The notes under the pieces: generated by a model | Seen by the model: only the letters and a program-made list of their open reading frames with translations | Told to the model about the DNA's origin: nothing | The model's database searches: none | Shown here: positions 4,713-63,858 of the stretch, piece by piece | Numbering within the stretch: the first letter of the stretch is position 1 | Layout of the letters: each line of letters opens with the position of its first letter | NCBI GenBank assembly: GCA_964016885.1 | Contig: OZ024743.1 | Location: forward strand, 106,268,001-106,332,000 | Direction: 5' to 3' | Length of the DNA stretch: 64,000 nt | DNA from: Eledone cirrhosa | Taxonomy: Eukaryota | Program-made: the position numbers and the translations under genes

Positions 4713-4728
4713 CATTGGTTAGTACAGC

Positions 4729-6251: not shown

Positions 6252-6252
6252 T

Positions 6253-8962: not shown

Positions 8963-9231
8963 CAGACACACACACACATATATATATATATATAAGAAAT
9001 AGATCTAGGAACATAATATGGTTCGCTCCTCCTTTCTCATTAAATATTAAAACCCCTATTTCTAAACTATTTTTTAAAGCTCTTGACAAATGCTTCCCTA
9101 GAACACATAGACATTACTCAATTTGTAATAGACATACTATAAAATTAACTTATTCTTCCACCAAAAATTTACCGCAAAATATTATTAGAATTAATAATAG
9201 AAATTTAAAACCTAACCAAATACCACTAATA

Positions 9232-9352
9232 ACTGTTTCTACTTTAGGCACAAGGCCAGCAATTACCCAGTGCATTACTGGTACTTTATTTTATCGACCC
9301 CGTAAGGATGAAAGGCAAAGTCAACCTCGGCGGGATTTGAACTCAGATCGTA
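9232..9352 (-). mobile_element. Truncated SINE inserted into the PLE coding region
   Basis: Reverse complement of the SINE B-box, core and tail interrupts the ORF before the CNC motif. Confidence 0.85.
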
Positions 9353-11289
9353 TAACCCAAGCAATATCCAATTTGATAAATGTAACTGTAGAAATAAATC
9401 TAACTGTCCGTTAAATAACAATTGCTTAGCTAAAAATATAGTATATAATTGTAATGTAAAAACTAATTTAAATTCATTTAATTATGTGGGATCCACTTCC
9501 ACAGATTTTAAATCCCGCTTCAATAACCATAACAATTATTTTACAGATCCAAACAAAAAATCTTCAACTTCTCTATCTAGCCTATTATGGGACCCCAAAC
9601 TAAAAAACGTTGAGTATTCGTTGATTTGGAATATTATTTCAAAAGCTACTCATTTTAACTCCACTTCAGAAAATTGTGATCTTTGTATAGAGGAAATATA
9701 CTTTATATTAAAGACCAAAAATTCCCTGAACTTAAGGAATAATTTATTCCGTTGCTGTAGACATAGATTAAACTCAACGTTTAAATATAAATATAAATTT
9801 AAAATGTAAAATGACTAATTAATTAATTTTATTGATATATTGTGCCTGTCGATAAATCATTAGATTCCTTCATCCGTTTTTGAATGATTATACACTCAAG
9901 TAAAAATAACTTTTCTTCCTAAATATAAATAAATATAATTAAACTATTCTAGAGAAATATACTGAGAGCTCTTGAAGGGAGAAAATATTTCTTATATTTT
10001 TTTATTTTTTATTATTTGATAGCTTCTCCTATTTTCGAAAGTTTATCCTTTCAAAGTTTCTGTTTGTTTTTCTTATGGATATAAAATTAAGTTAAATATA
10101 CGTGGAACATTTTCTCTACTAAATATATTAAACATACTATTATTTTGAAATTATAACTTGAATATTCTATAATATTTTAAAGTTATATTGATTTTAAAGT
10201 TATATTACTTATAACTATATTTCCAAATCGTAATATAGTTCTTTTGTATTTTATGTACTCAATTATACTATGTACTGTATTTATATGTACTTCTCTCTAT
10301 ATGTGTGTACATATGTATATGTGTGTATTGACATGCATGTACATATGTTTTATGCGTGTATGTCTATCTGTATGTGTATATATACGTGATGCGTATCTAC
10401 CTATTTGTGAGGGTACATATGTGTATGTATATGTGGGAATTGTGTATGTACATGTGCGTGTTTATCCATATAATTCGATCGCACTTATGTATAGTGATTA
10501 TCCCAAGATTCGTGACAAAAAGACATATAATAACTGCCATAAATACATAACAGGTAATCTTATAAAACTTATATAAATGTTGTTTAATAACATAAAGTGT
10601 GTATAACATAAAATTTCCTTTAATATCTTAACAATTTAACATTTTATAAGATTCCTATATCTTAAAATAAATTAAAGAATCCTTTATATTTTGTATGTAT
10701 GTGTTATATACGTAGTTAGATATGTATATGTATTTTTATAAGTGTGTATATATATTTATATGTACGTATTTTTTGCGTGTGTATACGTGTTATGTCATAT
10801 ATAGATCTTTAATAATATATGGATTTCTTAATATATAGATCCCAAATTTTAATATATTGATCTCAATATTTAACTGATTAACTAAACATATTATTATATT
10901 TAAACAATGGTTACATTTCTCATATTATATATGTATATTCCATTCATGATTATTAACATTTCTAATTTTTATTTATTCATTTCATCTCAATTGTTAAGTT
11001 AACTCAACAAGATATGACTTAGAGTTTTTCGTTCTCTCTCATTTTATCCGTCTCCTCTCACTCTCTCCAGATTTCTCTCTCTGTTTATTCTGCTCTCTTT
11101 CTCTCTCTCTTTCCTTCTCTATCTTTCTATTTCTCTGTAACCCAACGGCTTATTTTAAAAATATCCAAATTTAAAAATATCCAATACTAATAATTAATGC
11201 TATAACTCCACTATCCGGGAGCTTCCAACAGTAATGGTTGCATTATTTAAGGGTATGTCAATATTTATTCATAAAACTTATCTATATTA

Positions 11290-14400: not shown

Positions 14401-14721
14401 ACCTGTTTAACCCTCTTTTAATTTCAGTTTATTTTGATCATGCCTTTATTTTTAAATTTATCTCATTCCTTGTATTTTGATCATGCTTTATTTTTATTTT
14501 TATCTTTATTTTTTATTTTTTCATTCGCACCGTTTCCTTTCGCTATATGTCTCTCCACCACTCCCCTACACACCCTTTGAACTCTGTTCCCACACACTTC
14601 CCACCCGAGGAAGGGCTTATGCCCGAAACGTCGTCCCCCACCAACACCCAACTCTCGAGAGCGTGAAATTAATAAACATTGTTGTACTGCCTCTCTGTTT
14701 TGTCCCTGTTCAAATTTTTCC

Positions 14722-20594: not shown

Positions 20595-22519
20595 AGGGAG
20601 TATAACTTGGAGTTACTGTAGGTTCACCCGGGTGAGCACTGGATGTTTAGGTTCACTTCAATGTTTAGATGTAGAGCTAGACAGAGTGTATTATAGTGAA
20701 AAAATAACAAAGACGATTGGTTACTCCTTCATTACATTTATTGGTTGGTGACCCCAATATGGACTCTGAATATCGCACGCGGATACGTAGTAATAGAGAC
20801 CCGAGATATAACGCCAATAGAATACTAGGAACCCCTACGACAAATACGCCTAATCAAAACACACCCACGCAACCACCAGACCTCAACAACCACACTAAAC
20901 ACCGTAAAGCCCAAAGTAGACCTATAAATGTATTCTATACACGTTGCCACCAATATACCGGGAAGCCTATTCAGGGCTCTGGAAAATCCTTCCCACATAC
21001 ATACACATAAATACCACAAGCTCTTCAATAGACACGCTCTTAAAATCTCATTCTCCACACCACTAAATCTAGGCCACACGATAGCACACACTAATAGGAC
21101 AAAAATACGCAAACACATGGTAACCCCACAACAAACCACTTGTACAACCCAGAACGAAACCACACACACAACACAACAACCCACATGCCAGCTCCACACA
21201 AAATACCATCAACCCACAAAGTGCCATCAAACCCCCAACTGCAACTACAATAAGCGAGTAGAATGCCCATTAAACGGGGAGTGCCTTGTTAAAAACATTA
21301 TTTACCGGTGCGATGTCACAGCTGGCACAAAAGAGTACCCCTATATAGGTGCGACCTCGACTACGTTTAACCACAAAAGCTCCTTTAAACACAGGTTCAA
21401 ACGATTCCAACTAAACTGGCCGATTTGATCTGGGATCTCAAAGACAAGAACATCGAATTCCAGATCATATGGTCAGTTAAAAGACGCGTGGCCCAACTCC
21501 CCAGCGACAAAAACCACTGCAGGTTATGCCTAGCCGAGGCGGCTGAGATCATTAAATTGAAATCTGCCATAAACTCTAGGTCTGACATAAGTATATATTG
21601 TAGACACACCAGGTTGAACACCTTCTCTGCACAAATATACGGCCGAGGGCCACACACTAACCCTGACTCAACATAGTGATAACCACCTTTGCTTTGCCAC
21701 ACGGTGCCTCATCTCAGTTCGTTTGTCTTATATAACATGTAACCCTTTGTAAGTTAAGATGTTGTAATTATCATGTCGCATCCATCACTCCCACCAACAG
21801 ACACATCGCCATACATCCCTCATCTCTGTACCATTGTGTTCTATCTGTCCTCTCTGTCAGGTTTTACCTTGTAAACCATCGTAACATCCTTTCCTGTAAA
21901 TATAATGTCGAACATATAACCCCATCGCCACCACCGCCACAATACACATCGCTATACGTCCACCATCCCTCATACAAAACCTTCTTTTCCCCGTGTTCCT
22001 TATGTCACTTTTTAACCTGCAATCCATCGTAAAATTCGTTCCTGTAAATATTTTGTCGCACATATCACCACCGCCACGACCTCTACCAGGTACATCTCCA
22101 TAATTCAACAATCATTAACATCATTAACATCACCAATACATATCATCCCTCCCTAAACAACGCATGTGTGTGAGCCTGTGTGTAAGTATATTTATTAGTA
22201 CAGCGCCATCTCCACTGGCTCTCCTCGCTTCTCTCTCTTTATATATATATACACATGTGTATGTATACTACGTATTTGTCAGACTAAGTGTGTCTATGTA
22301 TTTATCTGCTTATTGAATTTGACAGCACCAACACACCCATCACACCATAATAAACACCATTTCCACAAACAACACCACACCCACACCACACACAAAATTC
22401 AGCCTCAACTACATGCCAATCAGTCTACCGACAACCAGCACCCCACGCCTGAAACGCTCGTCACCATCCAATGAATGTAATGAAGGAGTAACCGACGTCC
22501 TTGTTATGTTTTCTCTCTC

Positions 22520-22615: not shown

Positions 22616-25160
22616 AGAGGGTCATATAGTTGTAATAATATTGCCAGAATTAATAACAGAACACATTCACTGTTTGGTTGGTTTTCGCTTCTGTATCTTT
22701 TATTTCAGTTAATTTATTCGGTCCTTAATATTTTCCATTGACTGATCAACAGTCAAAAATACAGATATAATATAGACACAAACACATATATATAGTCTAA
22801 CAAAGTTCTTTCGTTGCACATCTGCAACATCGTCAGTGGGCTATTATGTTTCCTCCTGTGGTATTGTATGTCTATGCCATCTTTATTTAATTTGTTTATT
22901 TATTTATTTATTTTTGGCTTCTTCTCTGCGCATGCGTTTCCGTGTGTGTATAGTGTTTGACGTGTGTTCGCGTGTGGGTGACTGTGTTTTGGTTATGGTA
23001 TTCTATCTTAGTTTACTAGTGTGTGTTTATATGTGTTTGTTGTTATTGTGCTTGTGTATATATTTATTTATTTATTTATATTTCTCTTAGGTCAGTATTG
23101 TTTGTTTGGGTGTTGTTGTTATTCCATTCATTTTTTTCTGTTTAGCTTTGGCCTTCTAAGTTCTATTTCATTGGCCTCTCTGATTTGCCTATGAGTCATT
23201 TCTATGTTTAGATATTATTTTAATTTCTATGTTTAGATATTATTTTAATTTCTATGTTGTCTATGTTACTGTCATGTTGTTGTCTAGCGTGTTCGTATAG
23301 TACTGAACCGTTTTTTCTTCCTTTTAGTCCCCCCAGTGTTGGTCTCTCCTTTCACATATACTACGAGCTGTCTCGCCTATGTATGTTGTTGTCATGTTTC
23401 TGCAAGTACCCTCTGTACATCTTATGCTATAGACTACGTTTCTAGTTTTACAGTTTATCCGGGGGTTTACTTTACATATAATACATTTCCTATTAGTACA
23501 GTGGGTTTTCTTAAAAGGGTATGTTTTGTTTATCAGGGATTTTATGGTGGTCCCTAGCTTTTCTACCTCCTTAATCTTTAGGTGGGTCTTTCTCATGGCC
23601 TTTCTACACTGGTTACCTAATTTCCCTCAAAGGGTAGCGTCCACAAACATGACACTCTGGTATCTCTGGTTGTCTTACCATGAGGTGGCTTTCCCTATCT
23701 TATGTTTAGTCCTATCTAAGCTATTCCATGATTTGCTCCTCTATAATGGGCAAATTCATTTCATGTCCAGTTCTATGAGGGTCTTATACTTCTCCGTGGC
23801 TCCTAAGTATACTTTGATTCTATCTCTCTGGTTGTAGCCAGAGAACTGCATGCGGTTGATGAAGTGTTGGATGTGTCTTTCCATTTCTGTTGGGTCGCAT
23901 ATGCAGGACACGTTCTTCATAACTCGTACCATGTCTGCGATCAGAATATTGAACTTAGAACTACTGGACATTGCTGAGATTTTGAGTATCAGGTATTTCG
24001 TGGCCATGGGTTTAGCGTAGTTTGAGTGGGGAATTTGGGCTCTCTCGTCTATAGTGTAAATCCAGAGTTCCGTGTCTAATATAGGGAGTCTATTGTTAGG
24101 GTGTTTAGAAGGGTAGTCGACAGTTACAGTTATACTCTGGTGTATGGAATTAGCTATCCGCTGGATGCCTTCCATTGTGCTACATTCTAAATCATACTTG
24201 TTAGTACTCTCTTGTGGGTATGTCCTTATCACTAGATTAATGTCGTCTACATAACGAGAGTACATGATGAGGTCTATGGAGCTCTCATCAAGGAGATCTT
24301 TGAGTCTCCTTTTCCACCATACCATAAAAAGGTTGGCAACGTCACCAGCTATGCTGACGCAAATGGCTGCTCGCTCATTTTGGGTGTAGATCTCGTCGAA
24401 TTTGAATATGTGGCCCTTTAGGGTAGTTTTAATACTAGCCCCTATTGCATGTGCGACCATTTTTCTTACCTGATCATTGTTTTGGTGGGTCTGTATGGTT
24501 TTGGTCCACCCAATCCACCTTTCCATGGGAGTCTTTTTTGCCACTGAGGTTATGGTGGGGCGGTCTACCTTTTATGGGTCTACTGGGGCAGAAACGGCTA
24601 AGGTAATGGCTGTCTAGGTAGTCAGTGTCATAATGAGTCTAAGTAGGAGGCCCAGTTCGTCTGTGTCGACGTCGCAGAACTCCACCTCACCCTCAGTCAT
24701 CATCTCCACACATTTTTCCACAGCAAAATCAATGTTAATGGATGGGTATAGTGATACCACGTCCATACTGCATATTATGCAGTTGGATAGGTTTTTGTTT
24801 TTGTTGCACTCACTGATTCTTCTGAGGAGGTCCTCTGTACTGTCACATACATCTGGAGACATCTTGATTATGGGGCGTATAACCATTGAGAAGAAGTAGG
24901 AGATCATGTAGTTGCTAACGATATTGGTGCTGCACACAGGTCTTGTTGGTGGTCTTGCTGTCGGGTCGTCGTCTGTCTTATAGTATTTGCGGAGCCCATA
25001 CAAGGGTGATATGTCATTGTTAGACGCCTGGAAGTTGTTGGCAGTGCATCTGCTTGGTTTAGGATGTCGGTCCATATCATCATCTGAGCGTTGAGGATCT
25101 TCTCTCTCCCCTCATATATTTGCTGAGTAATTTCGCTCGTGTGGGTGATGTGAGGTTATA
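22615..25160 (-). mobile_element. Decayed PLE of a different subgroup: RT + GIY-YIG
   Basis: PLYGLRK..PPTRPVC, SMDVVSLYPSI, SIAGDVANLFM, YSRYVDD, LPILD, NVVYSIRC..YIGETARS. Confidence 0.88.
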
Positions 25161-25169
25161 TACATATAT

Positions 25170-26866
25170 GTTGTAGTGGGAAGTGATTTTCGATTAGCCT
25201 AAAGAAGATTTTTCCGATAACTCCGCTACCACAACATAATCAACAAAAACACCATCAAACTCTCCTACAGCACCAAACCTAACTTAACGCACAAAACATC
25301 GTCTCCTCTAACAACAAAAAACTCAACCTCTATGGAAGAAATAACCTAGACATATGTGGAGAGCCGACCAGTAGGTGTAACTGTCCTGATAGACTCATGT
25401 GCCCCCTCAACAACAGATGCCGAGAAAGTAATGTGATCTACCAGTGCAACGTGAGGACGAACACCTCCAAGAAAGCTTATGTAAGATTAACCGCTTGTCA
25501 CTTCAAGACCCGGCTCTACCAACACCGACATACTTTCCGAAACACGGTCCGGCGACATGCCACTACACTTTCGGGACACATCTGGGACCTCAAAGATAAT
25601 AATATAACCTACAATCTCACTTGGAGCTTACTGTCCAGAGCTAACTCTTACACGGGAGCAAGTTGTCCGTGTAATTTATGCTCGGAGGAAACATTACAAA
25701 TGTTGTTTTCGAAGGACCAACTCCTAAACACGAAAGACGAACTGGTAACCGCATGCAAACACAGATTGCGTAGGACTTACATCGCCCTCATACCCCATAA
25801 CTCCCGGGTGAGTAGACAAGTGCTGATACCCCCCACTTGCCGATTTTGTAAGGGGAAACCCCTGCTTACATAGGTAGACAAACCTTTTTTTCTTTTCCTC
25901 TACGTTCCCCTCCATCTCATCCTATCACTTCCTTCCACCCCCGATCTTCTTCCTCGTCTGCTATTCACCTTTCGCCTACCCCGATGCAGCCCACCGGTCG
26001 TCTGTAGCCTCAGTACCCCCACCCCCGTAATTTTAAGATAGAATTGGCCGATTACGCCTTATTTTTAGCAGATGTGTTAGACCCCTGTAATTTTTTGTTT
26101 TTTGTTACTACTCCAATTCTACAATTTCTAAATTGCTTATTTAGTATTATTTTTTTCTCAACTTATTAACCTGTAATTGTAAGATAGCATTGGCTGATTA
26201 CGCTTTACTAACTATTTATAGCAGCTGTGTTAGACCCCTGTAAAGCCTGCTTTACATTTTTTCACTACCAACTACAATCTCTTATTTGGTATTTTCCCAT
26301 TTTCTACCTATTAAACTTTTCTATAGCTTAGCAATACCTACTAATTATAGCAGCAGTTTCTAGGCTCTACTGTTTTTGTTTTTTTATTCATTTCTCACTA
26401 TCAAAACTTTTTATATATTTATTATTCTTTTATTTTTATATTTATTTTTATTTTTATTTTACTCGCTTTTAACTCCCCCCTCCTTTTCTCCATTACAATT
26501 GTTCGACTTTTTATACACTATCCCTAGAATCTGATGGATAGATTTCACTTTCAACGCCTGACTGGCTTTCTTCACTCCCTCTTTGTTCTACCGGCAAGTT
26601 CAGCCACCCCTACCTCCCACCACATGCCATGATAGATTTATTTGACTTTATAACAAATTTTAACCAATCCTCTTGACAATTACTATCTTTCCATATAAGT
26701 TTGGCTATTTATTTACCAGGCTAAACATTCTTACTTCGTCCAGAAATAGCTGTCGAAAGGCCGTCGGGGTCATACTTGTTCCTATTACCGTCGCTACTAC
26801 CCTAAGTATTGAGTACTTTAGTGCATTATGGTTCATCTGGTTACTTACCACAATTCCTTCGTTATA
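25170..26866 (+). mobile_element. 5'-truncated PLE (GIY-YIG + 3' UTR), same family as 56682-58550 and 61171-63872
   Basis: CPLNNRCRESNVIYQCNV..FKTRLYQHRHTF..CNLCSEE..ACKH; shared 3' terminus CCTTCGTTA then (TA)n. Confidence 0.9.
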
Positions 26867-26897
26867 TATATATATATAACGAAGGAATTGTGGTAAG

Positions 26898-26939: not shown

Positions 26940-26980
<41 letters not shown>

Positions 26981-26984
<4 letters not shown>

Positions 26985-27166
26985 GTTTCTACTTCAGGCA
27001 CAAGGCCAGCAATTACCCAGTACATTACTGGTAGTTTATTTTATCGACCCCGTAAGGATGAAAGGCAAAGTCAACCTCGACGGGATTTGAACTCAGATCG
27101 TAAAGGGACGTAACTATGCTGGAAAGCATGGCGTACGACACTCTACCGATACTGCCAATCCACCGC

Positions 27167-27168
<2 letters not shown>
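26981..27168 (-). mobile_element. Full-length SINE
   Basis: Minus strand reads GGGCGGTGGATTGGCAGTATCGGTAG...GAGTTCAAATCCCG...GTAGAAACAATT. Confidence 0.9.
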
Positions 27169-30939: not shown

Positions 30940-31800
30940 TCCTTTGTGAGACTGGCCAATCTGCATCTATTCTCTTTGACTAAGCTGTAATTCTGGGACA
31001 AGAATTCAAAGATCGGGCGACTAGAACCTGCAATGTTGTGAGGCGCTCACTGCCTTCCACTAGGCGGGCAAAGCAATCAGTGGAAATTCCACTTCAGTGT
31101 TCTATAGGAGACTACTTGACGCTCTTGGAAAGGCACTGTTCGTCAACGAAATCGAAATGACCAATCTGTTCCCGAGGACTTTCGAGTCGAGGACTATGAA
31201 TACATTTCAGAAAAGGAATCCTTCTCTTGCCAGTGCAATTAGAGGGCATTGCCGATTCGAGATAAATTCTACAGACACGGGAGAATGGTTAGACGGACCT
31301 GCCCGAAATGAGATGCACGCAAAATGATGAAACCGTTCTGCACGCACACCTTCAGTGACCGTGCATTACTGACTCGTGGAGTCATGCCGAACTGCTGTTG
31401 CTGCGTGTGGGACGGATCTGGGTATCGACTGAGAAGGTAATGGAGATCGACCCACCACCTTCTTTTCGCCGGGTAGGACTAGCAGATGTCCTTCGTTTAG
31501 TAGACGTTACAAAAGCGATTCTGTGGTGGACCAGGTTGAAAGGGCTGAAGACTCACACTTTTCCTCGCTGGAGAGGAAAGTTATGCCCCTAAGTACATTT
31601 TTTTAAACGTGCGTGAATGTGGCGAGAATGGCCCGTGTGAAAAGGCCTACATGTAGGCTGCTAGACTTGAAGAGGAGAGTGGTGCCCTCTCCAGGTGCTT
31701 TCAAACCGTCAGGTTATTCAGGATTGGTGGGATCCTAAGTCAGCCTGGCTGGTTCTCCTCCATATTTAGGAATTTGTATTGTTGCAAAATGTATTGCATG
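30940..31800 (+). mobile_element. L1/Tx1-type LINE ORF2 3' fragment (C-terminal zinc-knuckle region)
   Basis: RCTQNDETVLHAHLQ*PCITDSW..KAILWWTR, followed by a T-rich tail; degenerate. Confidence 0.6.
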
Positions 31801-35818: not shown

Positions 35819-36017
35819 GTACAAGCATATGTATATATATACATATTGTTATACTTTGGGAGGGTCATGTTGCCAATAAGAAACACACGTACCAGTTGCT
35901 TTCACTTCAATGTATTATATATTTATAAATTCATAAATTTACAAATCTACAAACTTATAAATTATAAATTTCTGGTTGGTTGGTTGGTTCCACAACCAGA
36001 TAGTTGTTTATATATAT

Positions 36018-36062
36018 AGTCATAGTCCTTTCGTCACACACTCTGTGACCTCTTCAGTGACT
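36018..36062 (-). ncRNA. Minimal type I hammerhead ribozyme
   Basis: AGTCA-CTGAAGA-G-GTCAC-AGAGTGT-GTGAC-GAAA-GGAC-TA-TGACT. Confidence 0.8.
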
Positions 36063-36193
36063 GGGGATTCCTTTCTTCGTTTCTGTGCCTTTTCTTTCTT
36101 CTATCCTACGCCATTTTGTTTCTGACACACACAGAAACAAAATGGCGTAGGATAGAAGAAAGAAAAGGCACAGAAACGAAGAAAGGAATCCCC

Positions 36194-36238
36194 AGTCACT
36201 GAGGCGGTCACAGAGTGTGTGACGAAAGGACTATGACT
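36194..36238 (+). ncRNA. Hammerhead copy with mutated core (CTGAGGC)
   Basis: Mirror copy of 36018-36062 with A9 changed to C. Confidence 0.65.
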
Positions 36239-36484
36239 ATATATATAAACAACTATCTGGTTGTGGAACCAACCAACCAACCAGAAATTTATAATTTATA
36301 AGTTTGTAGATTTGTAAATTTATGAATTTATAAATATATAATAAATTGAAGTGAAAACAAATGGTGCGTGTGTTTCTTATTGGCAACATGACCCTCCCAA
36401 AGTATAACAATATCGGTTTCAACACACGATTTCAGATAAAGAATCTTGCTAAACAAATTCAGAAACGAAATATATATATACATA

Positions 36485-41169: not shown

Positions 41170-41699
41170 GTGTCTGTGTGTTGCTGATTAAGCGACGTTT
41201 CGGCAAACTTGTGTTGCAGTTGATTGAAACAAAGAAAATGCTTGCTCCTGAAACCAACCTGTAGGTGACTGAGATTTCCAAATAGAGGTGCAAACTTAAT
41301 GCAGCTCTCAGGAAGTTTTAGACTGACACAATATGTTATAAAATTGGCTCTTTGAAGTACATATGCAACACATATTTACCATCTGCCTGGAGTCAATCGA
41401 CGTGAAATAAAGAATCAACGCAAGGCTTGATTAGTGAATCGAACTCATGCCTCTACGAATTCATAGAGACATATTTCCTTTATCTTATAAATGTAATTAG
41501 AACGTATTTTTGAAATACACCATTTAAATATTAATTAGTAAATATCCCCACAAAAAATGATTAAATATTGCTCGTTGTCTTTAACGTCTCGTAAAAATTC
41601 GGGTAGGTTTAATGTCAAAATAACATTATGTTGCATAAATGATCATAAGTGACACACACATACTCAAACCTATACACACATACACACAGATATATATAT

Positions 41700-43853
41700 A
41701 TGACAAACATAGGACTAGCTTCATACAACTAGACATCAAAAATTACTACTCCTCTATCTCGCCCATAGTCCTGAACAAGGCACTCATATTCGCGATGAAT
41801 AGGACAGACCTAACACGCGACGAGGTCCGAATCATACACGCAGCCAGAAAGGCCCTGATCCGATTCAGTGGGGACATATGGACCCGTAGCGACTGGCCAA
41901 ATAATTTTGACATTACAATGGGCTCCAGTGACTCAGCGCAGCTAACGGACTTGGTTGGGATATACATACTCTACGAGATAAGCAGAGAAATACCCAACCT
42001 GAGCGGCGGGCTGTACCGAGACGATACACTCTTCACCGTAGTGGACCACAGCACCACACTGGTCGAAAATATGAAGGGGAGAATTAGGCACTTCTTTAGC
42101 AAGGTAGGACTTAATGTAGAGATGGAACCCAATAGAAAAGTAGTGAATTTCCTGGACACCACCCTCAACCCCAACACCAAGCTACACCACCCATATCATA
42201 AACCCAATGACAAGCTGGTGTATATCAACGCTGGGTCCAATCACCCTAGATCTATACTTAAGGCCGTAGTTAAGAGTGTCTCTGACAGAATCTCTAACTT
42301 GTCGGCCAATAAAGAGATATTCAATAGTAACGCTGATTACTATAACTCAGCGCTAGCCAAGGCGTTCCACAGCCATAGGATCAGCTACAACCCTAAGGGA
42401 CATGATCGAGATGACCCAAGGGTACCCCGGACCAATACCCAATGAGTCGCCCACCTAATACCTCAGTGACCAGTAGTAACACTCCCAGATCCCTATCCGT
42501 CACTACCCCCGGTAGAAGGTCCCAGATTACCCCAACGGTCTAATACCTACAACGCTGAAGACCACTGTGCTCCGGAGCATAGGCACCCCTTCACCGGCCC
42601 CACCACCCGCCTAACCCTAATTGAGCAGGGAGGCCGCACCCCGCAGGTTTATAGCACCACGGTGGGCCCATATGACCCTCATCATAGTGACGGCTCCTCA
42701 CACCTGAGTGACACCAACCGAGTTCGACCTGAGCTGTGCACAACCACGCAATGGACCAGGGCGGACACCCAACAATCCCGCAAGAATAAGACCAGGAAGG
42801 TCCCATGGTATAACCCTCCGTACTCGGTGGGTCTACGTACCAGCCTGGCTAGAAAATTCTTTAGAATACTGGATAAATATAGCCCTAGGGCCCACAAGTA
42901 CCATAAAATATTCAACAGGCACACGGTGAAACTTTCCTAATCAACCACACGCTCCGTAGCCCAGGACATAGCTGGCTTAAATAGGAATAGGCTCACTACC
43001 TCTCATACCACCGCAAACACCGGAGCCACCCAACAGAACCAGCACGCGGGGTGCACCCTAACGCGGACAGGCCCAACTAGCACACCGGAACCCAACGACT
43101 CTGTGCTGATTGCGGAGGTTACCCAGCCAAACCTGGGTGATGGTAACCACGCACTACATGTGGTGGGGCTTAAGAAGTCATGTAATTGCAGAGACCCATC
43201 ACTATGCCCACTTAGTAATGAATGCATGACGAAAAACGTAGTCTACAGGTGCAAGGTCACAACCCCTAACTCGGAGCACCACTACATAGGATCCACCGCG
43301 ACGAGCTTCAAAGATCGGTGGTATAACCATCGCCATTCCTTTAACAGAATAGAGAAGAGGAAATGTGCGGCCCTTTCTGAATTGATCTGCAAGCTCAAAC
43401 TTGAAAAGACCCCGCACTCTCTGGTCTGGTCCGTGGTTCCCCCAGAGAGAGGCGGGTCTGGTATTTGCAACCTCTGTTTTAGTGTGACACTCGAAATACT
43501 TCATGGCGGAACCAATTTATTAAACAGAAGGGCCGACTTATTCGGTGCCTGCAGACACCTAAGGACGGGAACGTTCCTCAAGCTATATGGATAAACCCCG
43601 GTTAAGGCCTCCCACAACGCCCCCACCCTGTATGTCCCCTACACCCCGTACCAATGACCAATGGACAACAACAACCACCCATAGTTTGTGGTCCCTATGG
43701 TGGATGGTCCACCGGATCCTCTACTGGTTAGGAGTCATCAAAAGCACGGGGGCGTTGTGGGAGGCCTTAACCGGGGTTTATCCATATAGCTTGAGGAACG
43801 CTATATATATGTATACTATGCTATATATATCTATGCTATGTGTATATATGTGC

Positions 43854-44952: not shown

Positions 44953-44956
<4 letters not shown>

Positions 44957-45096
44957 CGAAGGAAATGTGGTAAGGAATCAAGTGGACCATAACGCAGCAA
45001 AGTACTCAATATTTAGGGTAGTAGAGTGGGTAATAGGAACGAGTAGGACCCCGACGTATGAGCTCAAGTCGTTTCGACGGCTAATTCTGGACTAAA
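44953..45096 (-). mobile_element. Short 3'-terminal fragment of the 61171-63872 PLE family
   Basis: Matches 61171-61313; embedded in (TA)n. Confidence 0.88.
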
Positions 45097-45100
45097 AGTA

Positions 45101-45136
<36 letters not shown>

Positions 45137-45634: not shown

Positions 45635-45690
45635 TATATATATATATATGTGTGTGTGAGAAAAACCACAGACCCTCCATCTTAACTCTA

Positions 45691-45726
45691 CTTTTGAAAA
45701 GCAGAAGAGCTGCGAATCCGGTAAAG
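45691..45726 (+). ncRNA. Minimal hammerhead-like motif with U3-A8 core
   Basis: CTT-TTGAAAA-GCAG-AAGAG-CTGC-GAAT-CCGG-TA-AAG; A15.1 is changed to U here, but the paralog at 35521 has GAAA. Confidence 0.55.
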
Positions 45727-45843
45727 GAACCAAATCAATATATATATATTGCATTTTCGCTTTCATCTTCTTTTCTTTATACTTTCACTCGTGTAGGACA
45801 TCTCGGTTATTTTTCATTTTGTAAAAAAGAACCTCACTTTCCA

Positions 45844-45925
<82 letters not shown>

Positions 45926-46083
45926 GTCGATCGACAAGATCCCACGTTTCATTTAATTAACAAGTGTGGTGGCGTTCATTGAATCGGACCGAGGTAAGCA
46001 AGATTCCATCGGTCGTTTCAATTGCTAATACTGTCTACCTGTCAATATATATATAAATATAGATAGAGACAGAGATAAATAAT

Positions 46084-46266
46084 TGTTCCTACTTTTGGCA
46101 CAAGGCTAGCAAATATCCAGTGTATTACTGGTACTTTATTTTATCGACCCCGTAAGGATGAAAGGCAAAGTTAACCTCGGCGGGATTTCAACTCAGACCG
46201 TAAAGGGACGTAACTCTATGCTTCAAATCATGGTGTCAGACTCTCTACCGATACTGCCAATCCACC
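46084..46266 (-). mobile_element. SINE with 18-bp TSD
   Basis: TSD GAGACAGAGATAAATAAT at 46066-46083 and 46267-46284. Confidence 0.9.
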
Positions 46267-47159
46267 GAGACAGAGATAAATAATGAGAGGCATAAATAGA
46301 TAGGCAGACAGATTAATAGACAGCCTGATTTTGTTCTATTGTCTTTTCCATTCAGAATAAATATCTTCACGCTGTTAATATTCCTGCCGTTGTATATATT
46401 CTGTGGCCTCGATGTGTCCGCTATTTCCATTCTTCTTCAATTCGCTTTAGATATTCCCTTGTTATATTTGTGGCATTTCATCCAGAACGCACAGACACAA
46501 ACACACATATATACATTTATAAGTATATATAGAAGGCTTTGAAGATGTTGAAATAGAAGCTTTCACCATATTTTAACTAAATAAATTTAAGCAGAGAGTA
46601 GGGTTTAAAACCCTCTAAAATGGAAAAACTGAGTATTCAGACCACTCTGCCACTATTACACCGATACATCAACTATTCCTTTCCATTCAAATTAGAAGTA
46701 TATAAATAGTAAATATAATGACAAAGCAAGCGTCTGTTTTGAAGACAGCGATCGAAGTTTGAATTTAGTAGAAATAGGAGCTTTCACCATATTTTGAGTA
46801 AAGAAATTTAGGCAAATAGGGGATATTAAAACCTTCTAAAATGAAAATCAAACCCTATATATATATACATATGTAACTTTATATTACATTTTGGTATATA
46901 GTTATACTCCCGTAACCATGATATTCCATGCTCATTCTGCTTTCAATTTGTCGGAGTGATTTGTTTTTTCACTCCCATTAATTTATGGAAGATTCATTGT
47001 ATCTAAAAATGTCTTAGAAGGTATTAGTTTAATGTGATGTATTAAACTAAATACTGCAAAGATTGTAATTTAAATCCACCATTTCATGATGCGCTATTTT
47101 CTCCATACCAAAATGATATTTCATATTATCTCTATAACATTTTCTAAACCTACTACTGT

Positions 47160-48308
47160 TAAGGATACCTGTGCAGTGTACTCTACATGTAAATGGAGCT
47201 CCACTTAAGCATGTAGAGAATTTCAAGTATTTTCGGGCCGTGTTCACGGGTGATGGAAGACAGGAGGCTGAATATAGTGCACAATTGCAGGAGCTTGTAC
47301 AGTAATACGACGAGTTCAGCATTTGATAACTCTGGTCAACAACCAAAATGCTTCTGAGAGCAAGTAGCAATTTCCAACTAATTTTAGGCCACTAATAATG
47401 AATATTATGGTTAAAACGTTTTATTAGCTCTACGTTTCAAAATAAGCGTACGTTTGTGGTGAGGTAACCTTTGCATCACAGAAGCGCCGTTAAACTACTT
47501 TGGTGAAAAAGGCATATCACCTATATTTTGGATTCAATATTGGCAACCAGGATAAGAAGTGAGCTCCTCACATATCCTGCAACACATATACTATTAATCA
47601 TCATTAATGGTTTAACAGGAAAAGGAAATGAATGCCTTTTGCATTGTTTCTACTTTTGGCACAAGGCCAGCAATTAACCAGTACATTACTGGTACTTTGT
47701 CTTATCGATCCTGTAAGGACGAAAGGCAGAGTTAACCTCGGCGGGATTTGAATTCAGACTGTAAAGGGATATACAATAATGAAATATTAAATGTCGTGTA
47801 TATTTAAGCCAGTAGCTAATAAACATTTATCAAGGTGATATTTGGATTCAGGACATGGAAATATATTTGAAATGAATAATCTCATTTAAGAAGCACACAA
47901 CTTTTCAAAAATAGTTGACCAGTGTAATTAGGTGTAAAACCAAACTCTCTTTCTGTATTCGTGCCAATTCTTACGTATGGTCAGTAATGACGGAAAGAAT
48001 ACGATCGCGAATATAAACAGCTGAAATGGGTTTCCTCAAAAGAGTTTTTGGAGTACTGTTACTCGATAGAATGTGTAACTCGGAGATCAGAAAGTGACAC
48101 CAGGTAGAGCCACTACTTCTCAAAATTAAGAGATCAACTATCCGATAATATAGGCTTTGGTTAGAATGTTTCCGGAAAATCGTTGGTTGGCTTGGGGTTC
48201 CAGCCAGATAAGTTGGAGGCGGGTGCTGCTGACAGGACTCACTGGAATGAGTGTTTGAGGACTCAGTCCCCACGACCTTCTCAGGAATAAGTGAGGGAAG
48301 AAGAAGAA
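47160..48308 (+). mobile_element. RTE LINE 3' fragment split by an insertion (about 47380-47940)
   Basis: LHVNGAPLKHVENFKYF..GDGR, then PILTYG, VMTERIRSRI*TAEMGFLKRV; GAA-repeat tail. Confidence 0.75.
47643..47770 (-). mobile_element. Truncated SINE
   Basis: Reverse complement of B-box, core and tail. Confidence 0.85.
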
Positions 48309-48531
48309 TTATGATGAGGAGGAAGAGGAGGAGGAGGGGGAATAGGAGGAGGAGGGGGAGATGATGTCGGTAACTACATCGATGACGACGGAAAGAACGA
48401 AAAAAAGGATGACGATAGCAACGAAAACGATAGCAACGACAACAATAACAAGGACGATGATAACGAAATACGAAAAAGAAAACCCACCCCCAACGATATC
48501 AACGAAAACAATAAGTGCTGAAGACAATAAC

Positions 48532-48716
48532 TGTTTCTACTTTAGGCACAAGGCCAGCAATTAACCAGTACATTACTGGTACTTTATTTTATCGACCCCG
48601 TAAGGATGAAAGGCAAAGTCAACCTCGGCGGGATTTGAACTCAGATCGTAAAGGGACGTAACTATTCTGGAAAGCATGGCGTCCGACCCTCTACCGATAC
48701 TGCCAATCCACCGCCC
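48532..48716 (-). mobile_element. Full-length SINE with 14-bp TSD
   Basis: TSD CTGAAGACAATAAC at 48518-48531 and 48717-48730. Confidence 0.92.
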
Positions 48717-48833
48717 CTGAAGACAATAACGACGAGAAAAACGATGGTGACGGATACAATGACTATGAACATGACAAGATAAACAACGATGACGACGACG
48801 CCTACAGTGACGACGCCGACAAGGTAGATAATG

Positions 48834-49051
48834 GTTACTTATATAGGCACAAGGCCAGCAATTTTGGGGGAGGGGAACGTCGATTAAATCGACTCCAGTG
48901 CGTGACTGATACTTTATTTTATCTACTCCGTAAGGATGAAAGGCGAAGTTAACCACGGCGGGATTTGAACTTAGATCACAAAAGGGATGTAAGTCGATGC
49001 TCCAACGCATGTTGTCCAATGCTCTACCACTACTGCCAATTGACCGCCCTT
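48834..49051 (-). mobile_element. SINE of the longer subfamily with TSD
   Basis: TSD ACAAGGTAGATAATG on both sides; extra segment GTCGATTTAATCGACGTTCCCCTCCCC. Confidence 0.88.
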
Positions 49052-50726: not shown

Positions 50727-50891
50727 TATTAGAATTGGTGCTCTGAAATACCGATACATATATGAATGTGTATATAGTGTATTTTGAAATACACTTTATG
50801 CTTAAGTAAAAACATTTCGAAGACCTTACGCTATTGATTTAGAGTAGTGACAGTCTCACTTACTTCAATTTTCAGCAAACAGGGGAGATAA

Positions 50892-50936
50892 AGTTGACAC
50901 AGCTCTGTTTCGTACTTTTTGGTACTTATCAAAGCT
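50892..50936 (-). ncRNA. Type I hammerhead with U3-A8 core
   Basis: AGCT-TTGATAA-GTAC-CAAAAA-GTAC-GAAA-CA-GAGCTG-TG-TC-AACT, enclosed by a helix of about 20 bp (50867-50887 with 50942-50963). Confidence 0.75.
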
Positions 50937-51185
50937 AACTGCTCCACCTGTTTGCTGAAAATTATCAATTTTGGATTCTTATAGAATTCCAGTAATAATG
51001 AAGAACTGATTATACAAACGTTTGCCGGTCAAGCAAAAATTGAAAATTAAAATTGGTGCTCTGAAATAGCGATATATATATAAATGTATATATAGTGTAT
51101 TTTGCAGTGTAATCAGTTCCTGATTATTACTGGAATTCTATAAGAATCCAACATTCATAATTTTCAGCAAACAGGAGGAGTGCTG

Positions 51186-51227
51186 AGCTTTGATAACTAC
51201 CAAAAAGTACGAAACAGAGCTATGTCA
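51186..51227 (+). ncRNA. Mirror hammerhead copy (U3-A8), damaged
   Basis: AGCT-TTGATAA-CTAC-CAAAAA-GTAC-GAAA-CAGAGCTATGTC followed by a deletion. Confidence 0.6.
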
Positions 51228-51345
51228 TTGTTTGCTGAAAATTGAAGTAAGAGACACAGTCACTACTCTAAAACAATAGCGTAGGGTCTTCGAAATGTTT
51301 TAATTAAGCATACAGTGTATTGCAAAATACACTATATATACATTC

Positions 51346-51380
<35 letters not shown>

Positions 51381-56681: not shown

Positions 56682-56684
<3 letters not shown>

Positions 56685-58546
56685 CGAAGGAAATGTGGTA
56701 AGGAACCAGGTGGACCATAACGCACCAAAGTACTCAATACTTAGGGTAGTAGAGTGGGTAATAGGAACGAGTAGGACCCCGATGGCTGAGCTCAAGCTGT
56801 TTCGACGGCTAATTCTGGACTAAATGAACATTTTTATCCTGGTATATGAATAGCCGAGCTTCTCAGGGGGTAATTCCATATATGGTAAAAGTGATTGTCA
56901 CAAGGATTGGTCAAAGTTTGTTGTTGAGACACATAATTCTATCATGGCAATTCGTGGAAGGAAGGGGTGGCTGACCCTCCCAGTAGAAGAAAGAGGGAGA
57001 GGGGGTGGAGGAAACCCAGTCGTGCGTTGATAGTGCCAACTACAGCAGGGCAGGAGGTCAAGGAAGTATACTAGTGAGGGGGATGGGGAGGAAGTAGAAA
57101 CAATAAGTAAAACAATATGGGGTAAATATATAGAAGAATACCGAGAATGTTAAAAAAACAATTAAATATTTAAAAAAAAACAATTTCTGGTTACTATTCC
57201 CTAACGACAGCCATCAAGTCTCTCACTGGTACTGCTAGACTATAGAAGAGTTTACTAGGTGGGACGGAATTATAATGAGACCCTTTTAAGAGGTAGTAGT
57301 AATCAACCGAGTATATCTTACTGTGACGGGTCAACAAGTGGGGGGCCAAAATACTAAAGAAACTACCACGAAATAATAATTCAGAGTCCCGAGAGAAATA
57401 CAAAATAATTGTTTCTACCCTAGGCACAAGCCCAGCAACCACCCAGTGCAAACAATACACATCACCAATAACCTGGTTAAAAACATCTCCCTCCGCATAT
57501 CTATGGAAGAAATAACCTAAATAGCAGTGGAGAGCCGACCAGCAGGTGCAACTGTCCTGATGGATCCATTTGCCCCATCGACAACAGATGCAGAGATCGT
57601 AACATGATCTACCAGTGCAACGTGAGAACGGACACCTCCAACAAAGCTTATATAGGATTAACCGCATGTGACTTCAAAACCGGCTATAACAACACATACA
57701 TACCTTCCAATCCCAGCCCGGCGTCACGCCACCACACTTTGGGCCACATCTGGGACTTCAAGGATAACAATATTAGCTATGATCTCACTTGGAGCTTACT
57801 GTCCAGAGCCAACTCTTACACGGGAGGACGCCGTCCGTGCAATTTATGCTCGGAGGAAACTTTACAAATTCTGTTTTCGACGGACCAACTCCTAAACAGA
57901 AAGACGAACTGGTAACTGCTGGTAAACACAGATTGCGTAGGACTTACGTCGCCTTCAAACCCCATAATGACACGGGGAGTAGACAAGGGCTGTAACACCC
58001 CACTTGCCGACTTTGTAATGGATAATCCCTGCTTGCAAACGTAGACGTAAGATCTGTTATATCTTTTTATCGCTTCCTCTATATTTCCTTCTCCTCCCCC
58101 ATCCCTTCCTAGTCCTTCCACCCCAGTCCTCTTTTTTGTCGTCGTCCTTTTCCCTTTCTCGCCCACCCGAGGCAGCCCCTCGGTCCTTTGTAGCATCAGT
58201 ACCCCCACCCCCTTCCCCTATCCTATGATAGAATTGGCCAACTCCGCTTTTTATAGCAGATGTGATAAACTCCGGATACTTGCTTTCTTATCCGATGGCT
58301 GCCCCTTCTCCGTGTTTTCTACATTTCTTAGTGGTATCTTTGCTTTAATTTCTCGTATATCAGTATTTATTTTTTTTTTATTCTGAATTAATTTTCCGTA
58401 TCAAATTTTTCATATACTTCGTACGAGCATTTATGTAGTTTGCACTAGAAATTTTGTATCGTAGCGGCACCATTAGAGATAGTATTAGTATTCTTTTTAG
58501 GGATTCTGAATTATTATTTCGTATTAATTTATTTTTTGCACTCGTT

Positions 58547-58597: not shown

Positions 58598-59463
58598 ATA
58601 TATATATTTATATATATATATATGTCAGGTTATGAATCCCGACACATTCAGCGTGTCATAATATATATACATATATCAGCCTTCTTTCTTTCCCTCTTCA
58701 CGCCCTGGGGTGAAGTGGTATCTTGTCTTTAAAGTGTAAGAATATCCTAGACACCCAGTAGACAACTGATGAGACCCCCCCCCCCTGTTCTTGCTTTCTT
58801 CGTATTCCCACTGCATTTTAAGTTACCTTAAATAGCAACTACACAGCCATTTCTATTCTCTCTCTCTCTATATATATATATATGTACATATGATTTTAAA
58901 ATTAATTTATATCTTTAAAGACTTAAATTATTTTAAAATCCCATACATATATATATATGCATGTATCTGTGATATATGGCTATGCTAACTTATAAAACAC
59001 ATCTAAAAGATGTTGGGCATTTCCCTCTAGTTATATGCAAAAATGTGGCTTAGATTGATATATGTTTGAAGTACAATTTGACAGGTTGAAGAAGATCAAG
59101 TAATTAGGCATCAACTTTTGTGGTAATTTCACATAAAAATCTGGAGTGTCATGGTTATTGCAGTTTTATGCACAAAAGTGGTCCAAATTGTTATCAGTTT
59201 GGATACTCAGGTGAGTAGGCACAGGAATTTGTAGTTCTTTCGTGTCCTCAAAGGGGAGTGTTGCTATGTATTGAATATGGACAGTGTCAGTTTATGTCTT
59301 TTTCGTGTGTTCAATAGTCAAGTTGATATTGTATTTCTATCAATCACATAAGTTCAAAATTACGAGAATATTCTTTATGCATATGTTAGTCTGTTTTGTA
59401 TTTGTATAAAAATAGTTTATTTAACTCACTCGTCCGATCAATAGCAACAAGAAAAGTAGTAAT

Positions 59464-59806
59464 AATTGTTTATACTTTTGGCACAAGGCCAGCAATTTTC
59501 CTAGTGTATTACTGGTACTTTATTTTATAGACACCATAAGGATGAAAGGCAAAGTTAACCTCGGCGGGATTTGAACTCAGACAATAAAGGACCGTAACTC
59601 TTTGCTTGCAAAGCATGGCGTCTGACCCTCTAGCGATACTGCCAATCGGACGCCATGCTTTGCAGCATACAGTTGCGGCTCTTTATGATGTGAGCTCAAA
59701 TCCCGCCGAGGTTAACTTTGCCTTTCATCCTTACGGGGTCGATACAATAAAGTACCAGTAATACACTGATTGAATTGCTGACCTTGTGTCAAAAGTAGAA
59801 ACAATT
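59464..59806. mobile_element. Head-to-head inverted SINE pair
   Basis: Minus-strand copy 59464-59646 directly abuts plus-strand copy 59647-59806. Confidence 0.88.
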
Positions 59807-60189
59807 ATTACTATCAACATCTTAATTATAATGGCAACTATGATAATAATGCTCCAATCTGCGAAATGAACAAGAATTGTACGTGACTGTGTGTATGCAT
59901 GTATGTGTATGTGTGAGCGTGCGTGTTTAGGTGTGTGTGTAAGTGTGTGTGTATGTGCGTATGTATGCGTGTGTGGCAATGCCGATTTATTCCCTTCTAC
60001 GTTCGGGTAGAGAGGGTCATGTGATATAATAATAATAATGGTAACAACAGCAATAATAATGATGATAATATTTCCATTAGTAAGGTTGAAATATAATCTA
60101 TTCAGATGTAGTTTGTATTTTTGAATAAATATATTGAAGAATGAATAAATACAAAATCAACTCGAGATACATTCAATAATCTATACTGT

Positions 60190-61140: not shown

Positions 61141-61264
61141 TCCTGCCATATATATATATATATATATATATAACGAAGGAAATGTGGTAAGGAACCAGGT
61201 GGACCATAACGCACCAAAGTACTCAATACTTGAGGTAGTAGAGTGGGTAATAGGAACCAGTAAG

Positions 61265-61358
61265 ACCCCGACAGCTGAGCTCAAGCCGTTTCGACGGCTA
61301 ATTCTGGACTAAATGAAAATTTATCCTGGTATTTAAATAGCCGATCTTCTCAAGGGGT
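61265..61358 (-). ncRNA. Type I hammerhead with U3-A8 core, extended stem II and 6-bp stem III
   Basis: ACCCC-TTGAGAA-GATCGGCTA..TAGCCGTC-GAAA-CGGCT-TGAGCTC-AGCTG-TC-GGGGT; GUC triplet. Confidence 0.82.
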
Positions 61359-62457
61359 AATTCCATATATGGTCAAAGTGATTGTCAAAAATCAGTAGTA
61401 ATTCTGTGGTTGCAAATTAGTAGGGGAGATGGTGGCTAAACCTGCCAGTAGGAGAAAGAGGGGAGGGGGTGGAGTAGACCCAATCAAGCGTTGGTAGTGC
61501 CAGCTACAGCTGGGCATGAGGTCAAAGAAGATACAGGGGAGGGGGAGGGGGAGGAAGTCGGAACGGTAGGTAGAACAATGGGGGGTAGAAATAGGAAAGA
61601 AAAAATACTGAGAGTGAAGAAAAGCAAATAAGTGTAAAGAAAAAAGTAAAGTAAATTAAATTCTACGACCTAGGTGTCAGGCTATTGTTAGGCGAGAATA
61701 AAATAAAGAAAGAAAGAAGTAAATAAATAAATAAATAAATAAATAAGGAAATAAGTAAAAGAACTAGGTGGGACGGGATAGGCAAGGACCCTTTTAAGAG
61801 GTATAAATACGTAAATGATACGGTGACGGGTCAACAAAAGGGGCCAAAATACTAAAGAGACTACCACGAAATAAACAATAAAGGTTTCCATCCCGGGCCA
61901 GCAACGACCCAGTGCAGCAAAGTGAACTTGTACGAGATAATAATTCTGAGTCCCGAGAAAAATATATACTAATGCTAACTCTAAAATATCTAAAACAAGC
62001 TACATGAAAGTTCGTACGAAATAAAGGTAGAATACGGAAAAATAAATTCAGAATCCACCCCGCCCAGAAGAAAAGCGAAGCAAGAAATACTGAAACGAAA
62101 AAATAAGGCATAAGTGCCACTAAGAAATATAGAGGGCACAGAGAATAGTGGGAGCGGTCGGAAAAAGGGGGCAAGTATCCGGGGTCTAAGCCAACTGCTA
62201 TAAAGGGCGGAGTCCGCCAAATCTATCATAGACTAGGGGAGGGGGTGATGGGGGTGCTAAGGTTACATGGGGCCAAAGGGCAGCCTCGGGTGGGCGAGAA
62301 AAGACGCCGACAAAGGAGAAGAGCTGGGGTAGAAGGAAAAAGGAGAGAGGGGGGAAGGAAATAAAGGAAGCGATAAAAGAATACAAAGAAGATCTTACGT
62401 CTTCCTTGGCAAGCAGGGGTTACCCATTGCAAAATCGGCAAGTGGGGTGTTATAGCC

Positions 62458-63588
62458 CTAGTCTACCCCCCCCGGGTCATTATGGGGTTTGAGGGCGAGG
62501 TAAGTCCTACGCAATCTATGTTTACATGCAGTAACCAGTTCATCTTTCTTGTTTAGGAGTTGGTCCGTCGAAAACAGCATTTGTAAAGTTTCCTCCGAGC
62601 ATAAATTGCACGGACGGCGTCCTCCCGTGTAAGAATTGGCTCTGGACAGTAATCTCCAAGTGAGATCATAGGTGATGTTGTTGTCCTTGAGGTCCCATAT
62701 GTGGCCCGAAAGTGTAGTGGCGTGACGCCGGGCCGGGTTTCGGAAGGTATGTCTATGTTGGTATAGCCGGGTCTTGAAGTCACATGCGGTAAGTCCTATA
62801 TAGGCTTTGTTGGAGGTATCCGTCCTCACGTTGCACTGGTAGATCACATTACGGTCTCTGCATCTATTGTCGAGTGGGCAAATAGATCTATCCGGGCAGT
62901 TACACCTCCTGCTCGGTTCTCCACTGCTATTTAGGTTATTTCTGCCATCGGGGTTGAGTTTTTTTGTTGTTAGAGGAGACGATGTTTTGTGCGAAGTTTG
63001 GTGTAGTGCTGTAAGAGAGTTTGATGGTATTTTTGTTAATTATGTTGTGGTAGCGGTGTTGTAATGGGAAGTGTTTTTCAATGAGCCTAAAGAATAGTTT
63101 CCCGATGGGAGTAGTCACCTCTGCGTTGTGGGGAGGATTGAACCATGTTACATTGCGTGAGCGGCGGTGTCTCCTGCTGGTTCCGCTAATGGGAGCTGGA
63201 CAGTAGGATATTTCCTCCCGGAAACCACTCCGCTTGAGGGCCTGGTTGTAATAAGGCGCATGTTCATCGAATATCCGCTCATTAGCTGACAAACGGGATA
63301 TGCGGAGGGAGATGTTTTTGACCAGGTTGTTTGTGATGTTCCTAGGATGGTTTGATCGGCGGTGGATGTAGTGCAGATTGTCATTAGGTTTCCTGTATGG
63401 GTAGTACAGGTCGTTTTCGAGGTCGAGGGTTACGTCCAGGAAGTTTACTCGGGTCAGGGACGTTTGTAGGGTTATTTTAAATCCCCAGTCGCGGAAGAAT
63501 CTGATTAATTGTTTCCGGACCCGATCTGTACTACTGGGGTTGTACCCTTTAAGGGTAAGGAGCCCATCATCACGGTACAATCCACCAC
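62458..63588 (-). pseudogene. PLE RT-thumb/GIY-YIG coding remnant (frameshift near 62940, 5' truncated)
   Basis: ORFs 62936-63580 and 62458-62847 join into the C-terminal half of a PLE protein. Confidence 0.85.
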
Positions 63589-63764
63589 TGTATTTTCTTT
63601 GACCTCATGCCCAGATGTAGCTGGCACTACCAACGCTTGATTGGGTCTACTCCACCCCTCCCCTCTTTCTCCTACTGGCAGGTTTAGCCACCATCTCCCC
63701 TACTAATTTGCAGCCACAGAATTACTACTGATTTTTGACAATCACTTTGACCATATATGGAATT

Positions 63765-63858
63765 ACCCCTTGAGAAGATCGGCTATTTAAATACCAGGAT
63801 AAATTTTCATTTAGTCCAGAATTAGCCGTCGAAAGGGCTTGAGCTCAGCTGTCGGGGT
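63765..63858 (+). ncRNA. Mirror hammerhead copy in the inverted terminal repeat
   Basis: Identical to 61265-61358 except C15.2 changed to G (GAAAGGGCT). Confidence 0.72.

Follow-up and report, generated by a model that had tools for sequence, protein, structure and literature searches.

U3-A8 hammerhead motifs as a family-level trait of Penelope-like elements and a tandem repeat in the Eledone cirrhosa genome

Introduction

A 64,000-nucleotide stretch of the Eledone cirrhosa genome (assembly GCA_964016885.1, contig OZ024743.1, positions 106,268,001 to 106,332,000 of the forward strand; hereafter the window, with coordinates counted from its first letter) carries five copies of a heptamer, UUGANAA, that would form the core of a hammerhead ribozyme (HHR) in which U3-A8 takes the place of the C3-G8 pair. 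A first-pass annotation assigned these copies to three unrelated families and read the shared double change as a sign of selection on catalysis and of a large, overlooked HHR class. This raises the question of whether U3-A8 was inherited from the master copies or is a decay product of CUGANGA cores, and of how tightly selection holds the 3-8 pair. The same covariation from C3-G8 to U3-A8, stated to be active in vitro, was described by Perreault et al. in 2011 (PMC3088659), and about 1,300 U3-A8 HHRs are reported in Schistosoma Penelope-like elements (PLEs) by Cervera and De la Pena 2014 (PMC4209133), so that the class can hardly be called overlooked.

Results

Hammerhead motifs in the window

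Checked against the window sequence, all five heptamers are present at the annotated coordinates and strands, and each indeed has the 5' strand of helix I on one side and helix II on the other. After helix II they are followed by GAAA (GAAT at 45714), helix III, an NUH triplet and the 3' strand of helix I, which is the order of a type I HHR. The motifs fall into three families, F1, F2 and F3, represented in the window as follows:

61265..61358 (- strand): F1 type I HHR, intact, with the core U3-U4-G5-A6-G7-A8-A9 at 61353-61347 (TTGAGAA)
61173..63588 (- strand): F1 PLE copy of the youngest subfamily, 5'-truncated, 98.9% identical over 1,427 nt to the copy at locus L091
63590..63873 (+ strand): inverted 3' arm of the same F1 insertion, 98% identical to 61250-61534
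63765-63858 (+ strand): second F1 HHR, core TTGAGAA at 63770-63776, with private C15.2>G damage
56776..56871 (- strand): F1 HHR of the C3-A8 subfamily, core CTGAGAA at 56866-56860, with private G16.2>A damage, within an F1 3' fragment at 56684-57138
44956..45107 (- strand): F1 3' fragment ending inside helix II, without the core
26697..26868 (+ strand): old F1 3' fragment, core deleted
50728..51355: F2 retrozyme insertion in inverted arrangement, found by blastn with one natural 320-bp unit
50892..50936 (- strand): F2 HHR, TTGATAA at 50926-50932, with a 4-bp helix II and a palindromic helix III
51186..51230 (+ strand): second F2 HHR, inverted arm, TTGATAA at 51190-51196, with G10.1>C and the 3' strand of helix I lost
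45691..45726 (+ strand): small F3 HHR, TTGAAAA at 45694-45700 (N7=A), with A15.1>U, inside a 3' fragment (45655-45844) of a second PLE; helix III of the family is ACCGGU
14602..14634 (+ strand): decayed minimal HHR of a canonical C3-G8 family, with U4>C

The last of these lies downstream of PLE ORF remnants at 11482-13334, and both core classes thus occur in one window. The F1 motif at 61265..61358 has a helix I of 5 bp, a long helix II and a near-palindromic helix III; its minimum-energy structure is the HHR fold, and cleavage is predicted after GUC, between 61270 and 61269. Among the F1-F3 motifs it is the sole intact HHR within the 64-kb window, and it shares with the majority forms of the families the core N3-UGA-N7-N8-A with GAAA and NUH at a three-helix junction, helix I being open. 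The pairs G10.1-C11.1, A15.1-U16.1 and 15.2-16.2, kept in the families, are broken in four window copies, and the F2 copy at 50932 is mildly decayed, with one mismatch in helix I and one in helix III. Because the window copies other than that at 61353 are privately damaged, family-level data were needed.

Neither 61200-61420 nor any of four family loci matched a hammerhead model in Rfam; on the whole window, the matches listed (150 of 229) included microsatellite-driven miRNA matches. Since canonical C3-G8 PLE motifs at two other loci (L153, L157) also lacked an Rfam match, the Rfam models miss the class.

The window is dense in Penelope-like fragments, with PLE ORF remnants also at 5441-6388, 8956-9809, 18072-19848, 20928-21428, 23324-25111 and 41639-43594. 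It further contains a 282-nt inverted repeat (35843-36413; arms 98% complementary, 7 nt apart) and a SINE-like repeat of ~190 bp, presumably resembling an octopod SINE (4551-4927, 9225-9352, 26979-27168, 46078-46267, 47643-47769, 48525-49049 and 59461-59809).

U3-A8 is the consensus of all three families

The 3.0-Gb, microsatellite-rich genome was searched with exact family patterns in which positions 3 and 8 were left open; the rows tabulated are the first along the largest contigs and not a random draw. Exact matches numbered 4,041 for F1 (N7=G), 287 for F2 and 5,928 for F3, with none for any of the reversed patterns, and a structural descriptor gave two matches in genome samples taken at even spacing (400 kb in total) and none in one Markov resample of them. 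Among the matches listed, U3-A8 was found in 99/100 for F2 (the remaining one being U3-G8), in 99/100 for F3 (the remaining one G3-A8) and in 75/100 for F1 with N7=G, where the other 25 were C3-A8. Genome-wide, ~70% of these F1 copies carry U3-A8, and G8 occurs in 14 of 4,041 (10 U3-G8 and 4 C3-G8). A further 1,402 F1 copies have A, C or U at position 7, and 100 of these matches listed comprised 90 U3-A8, 5 C3-A8, 2 U3-G8, 2 U3-C8 and 1 G3-A8; among the F1 subfamilies any of the four bases can stand at position 7, and A8 is retained in 96/100 matches listed. A sister family of F2 (664 matches) has A8 in 98/100 matches listed and U3 in 19/20 loci.

Given that U3-A8 is the consensus of all three families, it was inherited from master copies and did not arise by decay; the CUGANGA consensus that, by the annotation's own reckoning, would have spoken for independent decay was not what tabulating positions 3 and 8 revealed. 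A Watson-Crick 3-8 pair is present in F2, F3 and most of F1, and absent in the C3-A8 subfamily.

That the class is large was borne out, with more than 10,000 exact-pattern U3-A8 matches in this genome (the family patterns sum to ~10,900). A generic short-stem U3-A8 pattern yielded 4,517 more, against a high control of 2,712, with several further families among the rows listed, and a generic C3-G8 pattern yielded 14,743 against 440, most of them minimal and with one more base after A9. Generic C3-A8 (991 against 844) and U3-G8 (1,083 against 665) were near background. U3-A8 and C3-G8 motifs are similarly abundant genome-wide, to the same order of magnitude, the patterns being unequal in strictness.

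The proposal that the F1 core is CUGANGAA minus position 7 found no support: extra-base matches numbered 4, against 2 in the control, all with A8-type cores. Additional U3-A8 families with distinct helix II sequences were seen at L181-L210 and L346-L353, one of them linked to an F1-related ORF; in another (L206, L210) A9 is followed by an additional U and the base of helix II is unusual. Long-helix type I motifs of two more families, U3-A8 in one and C3-G8 in the other, were each seen once or twice, and L116:6452-7083 holds a U3-A8 pair in inverted orientation. A U3-G8 heptamer family (L354-L361; 8/100 among the matches listed, with a diverged window copy at 31620-31775, + strand) has a good helix II and GAAACGUC, with no convincing helix I.

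The families are carried by two PLEs and a 320-bp tandem repeat

A full-length F1 copy elsewhere in the genome (L091) has an ORF of 718 aa between two HHRs 3,118 nt apart. The window copy at 61173..63588 retains the C-terminal part of the reverse transcriptase (RT) and a GIY-YIG-type domain (63588-62458, one frameshift), followed by the 3' UTR and the HHR, with a tail of ~95 nt ending in (TA)n. The F1 ORF has no Pfam match and is weakly similar to the F3 ORF (E 5e-8); we take it to be that of a PLE (RT, then GIY-YIG) from its similarity to other PLE ORFs and from its motifs. In the F3 ORF, GIY-YIG scored above its cut-off and RVT_1, at E 1.4e-6, just under. In both F1 and F3 the HHRs lie in terminal repeats and the insertions are truncated, tandem or inverted. 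The 5'-truncated window copy of F1 with its inverted 3' arm has a layout reported for PLEs (PMC8557442). Judging from motifs, F1 may be Nematis-like and F3 Neptune-like.

F2 is an ORF-less tandem unit of 320 bp with one type I HHR each and a long array at L107, and no linked PLE ORF was found at a fixed place in 30 loci. Non-LTR retrozymes are defined as non-coding tandem repeats of 150-450 bp with one type I HHR per unit, a description that F2 fits. In an F2-lineage set of 17 rows hand-picked from 38 types, 97.5% of 238 cells were paired (slid controls pair at 23-38%), and six pairs, distributed over helices I, II and III, had changed on both sides while the U3-A8 core stayed fixed, a both-sided count that is not above shuffles (99 of 500) in a control that ignores relatedness, related rows inflating the test. 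The F1 helices are invariant and so uninformative for covariation.

A young 4.2-kb PLE was also observed in tandem arrays (L342-L345; G000:C1:97365500-97375499 and others), with an upstream ORF of ~476 aa separate from the 775-aa RT-endonuclease ORF; its spacer showed no recognisable standard hammerhead.

A C3-A8 subfamily within F1

The C3-A8 core of the copy at 56860 had been put down to later decay, an explanation that does not hold, as the copy belongs to a C3-A8 subfamily comprising at least 1,195 of the 4,041 F1 copies. Paired F1 insertions carry C3 in both arms. In one independent read set, which may come from the genome's own sample, T>C at position 3 made up 24% of the summed contig depth, and no A>G at position 8 reached 5%.

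A tree of 91 copies of the 3' UTR (429 columns, with positions 3, 7, 8 and 10.2 removed; five rows with long branches at the midpoint root were disregarded as probable junction chimeras) formed a ladder of U3 (N7=A/C), then C3, then U3 (N7=G/U). The same ladder was obtained with the ORF (23 copies), where two changes are needed at position 3 and a single C3 clade is rejected by the AU test (p-AU 1e-61). Compared with the intact young copy, ORFs were 99% identical in young U3, 86-97% in C3 and 81-91% in old U3 copies, and within-group divergence over the HHR region was lowest in the young U3 groups; the old-to-young order of F1 is read from such copy divergence. Distant outgroups (~50% protein identity) root the ORF tree at the young end, a placement that we do not trust and that leaves the direction of the U3/C3 change unsettled, and a root inside the C3 grade would imply two separate C-to-U changes.

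The C3 majority differs from the intact U3 ORF at 74 synonymous and 19 non-synonymous codons, and private ORF changes comprise 87 synonymous, 129 non-synonymous and 3 stops (Fisher p 6e-11 against 74/19). This synonymous excess over private changes indicates that the C3 masters were working elements with an ORF under purifying selection.

No C3-G8 sister subfamily of F1 was found among 93 matches, which were nearly all truncation junctions or single mutants. We rejected C3-A8 as an ancestral intermediate from C3-G8, given that older U3-A8 subfamilies exist and that no such sister was recovered, and set aside as chance a repeated C3-A8-like match inside a PLE coding region, without helices. A contig of another organism, matched by window positions 63751-63789, holds a relative of the old F1 type for which no change was listed at position 3 or 8; this is a weak hint that U3-A8 may be ancestral. 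No amplified C3-A8 subfamily was found in the literature searched, most subscription papers and figures lying outside that search.

Predicted folds and DNA ends

The predicted probability of the HHR fold was about 0.46-0.47 for the youngest F1 form and the copy at 61265-61358, and 0.003-0.08 for the nine older F1 copies folded, the C3 subfamilies being lowest (0.003-0.024). Such low values suggest that, irrespective of the base at position 3, HHRs of the older F1 subfamilies may be inactive. None of 30 F1 copies ended at the cleavage site, so DNA ends do not show cutting; in a separate count of 67 ends, blind to ends at the cleavage site itself, TA-like points 15-19 nt downstream accounted for 35 and those 95-99 nt downstream for 25.

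Selection on the 3-8 pair

Considering the family consensus, the structure, the position in terminal repeats and the covariation in F2, each of them observed, we think it likely that these are type I HHRs inherited from two PLE masters and one 320-bp tandem repeat, in which U3-A8 replaces C3-G8, with cutting predicted and selection loose at the 3-8 pair. The HHRs would likely cut a multi-unit precursor RNA into unit-length transposition intermediates, the F1 unit being perhaps ~3.1 kb; such release of unit-length RNA from tandem precursors has been proposed (PMC4209133). Cleavage should follow the NUH triplet, by established hammerhead chemistry, and F2 and F3 may act as dimers through their palindromic helix III. 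The F1 master lineage appears to have carried C3-A8 through successive subfamilies, still transposing, with U3-A8 on both sides, as if selection kept the fold in the long term and was loose at the 3-8 pair. Since C3-A8 was amplified, an intact 3-8 pair seems unnecessary, which weakens the strict form of the selection on catalysis that the annotation had proposed, as far as the 3-8 pair in F1 is concerned. Fast cleavage is probably helpful for amplification and not required; minimal PLE HHRs cleave poorly in vitro (PMC4209133). More tentatively, F1 may represent a core pair that was broken and then repaired, from U3-A8 to C3-A8 and back to U3-A8, with more than 1,000 insertions made by masters with a crippled HHR before selection restored the pair and added a pair in helix II.

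Strict selection, under which each amplifying master needed an active HHR and C3-A8 was active via a C-A wobble or the surrounding structure, strikes us as unlikely. Mismatches at 3-8 strongly lower rates in model HHRs, the C3 subfamilies have the lowest predicted fold probability, and no other family has fixed C3-A8 (the near-background generic count above; 1/20 loci). What can be said for it is that, at positions that the search pattern did not fix, helix I, helix III and the remainder of the F1 core hardly changed during the C3 phase, and that, as Perreault et al. suggest (PMC3088659), distal contacts can offset variant cores.

Slightly less credible still is that the F1 HHR was a near-neutral passenger, in which case cleavage was dispensable, C3 came from slippage next to the helix I C-run and U3 came back by chance. 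Naiad PLEs do amplify without canonical HHRs (PMC8557442), and the base of helix II is unpaired in most F1 subfamilies. Sporadic C3, among the matches listed, seemed more frequent in another family with a C-run before its core (5 rows) than in F3 (3 rows), itself roughly threefold larger, a rough comparison that is not age-corrected. Yet the changes between subfamilies fall at position 7, at 10.2, in the loops and in distal helix I, sparing G12-C17 and the helix I pairs; an A10.2-U11.2 pair was acquired in the youngest F1 subfamily, which folds as an HHR; and F2 covaries around a fixed U3-A8 core. Retained HHRs with loose selection at the 3-8 pair remain the reading that we prefer.

Independence of the three families

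The F1 protein is 36% identical (E 1e-178) to that of a C3-G8 PLE on metagenome contigs L249-L251, which are one element seen three times, and the F3 protein is 32% identical (E 5e-37) to that of a PLE from this genome with linked C3-G8 motifs in 4/30 loci, whereas F1 and F3 share 21% identity. Because F1 and F3 each have a nearer protein relative among C3-G8-bearing PLEs than in one another, and because C3-G8 also prevails among representative animal PLE HHRs (53 of the 56 rows in Fig. S3 of PMC4209133, the others being 2 U3-A8 and 1 U3-G8, with no C3-A8 in that figure), separate gains are the simpler account, and F1 and F3 probably acquired U3-A8 separately, judging from pairwise similarity and not from a tree. 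Of the three unrelated families that had been claimed, F1 and F3 are indeed distant PLEs, and independence is shown for two at best. That U3-A8 arose once in a common ancestor or spread by terminal-repeat exchange, so that the families are not independent evidence, is very improbable given these protein identities and the lack of any helix sequence common to the three HHRs, even though F1 has its core heptamer, following a C-run, in common with a second family whose ORF is related, and no parent element of F2 was found.

Discussion

The HHRs described here resemble those of Cercyon PLEs of Schistosoma mansoni, likewise type I with U3-A8 in terminal repeats, in opposite-strand pairs and with a palindromic helix III (PMC4209133). 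They differ from Cercyon in four respects: F1-F3 do not have the extra base found there between 9 and 10.1, helices II and III of F1 are long, U3-A8 and C3-G8 occur at similar frequency in this genome, and C3-A8 became fixed in one lineage. Whereas Perreault et al. gave several examples of the swap (PMC3088659), U3-A8 is here the consensus of thousands of retroelement copies. F2 is ORF-less and tandem with one type I HHR per unit, like the metazoan non-LTR retrozymes (PMC7229834; Li et al. 10.64898/2026.07.22.740005), from which it differs in its U3-A8 core. Nematis and Neptune PLEs also encode RT followed by GIY-YIG with a cysteine-rich linker zinc finger, as here, and their insertions are likewise 5'-truncated, with an inverted 5' arm and a tail at one end, into (TA)n, but the F1 tail is ~95 nt long compared with 30-40 nt in those elements (Craig et al. 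2021, PMC8557442).

Of the HHR motifs counted here genome-wide, roughly half would escape searches restricted to CUGANGA. The swap to U3-A8 was known before, and the part worth a bench test is the mismatch detour. If that detour is true, the dated F1 subfamilies would form a natural series of alleles with which to gauge the amount of self-cleavage that a Penelope element needs. For the question of whether HHRs in PLEs process RNA or ride along, a lineage that multiplied with a mismatched core, between phases with paired cores, provides natural test constructs.
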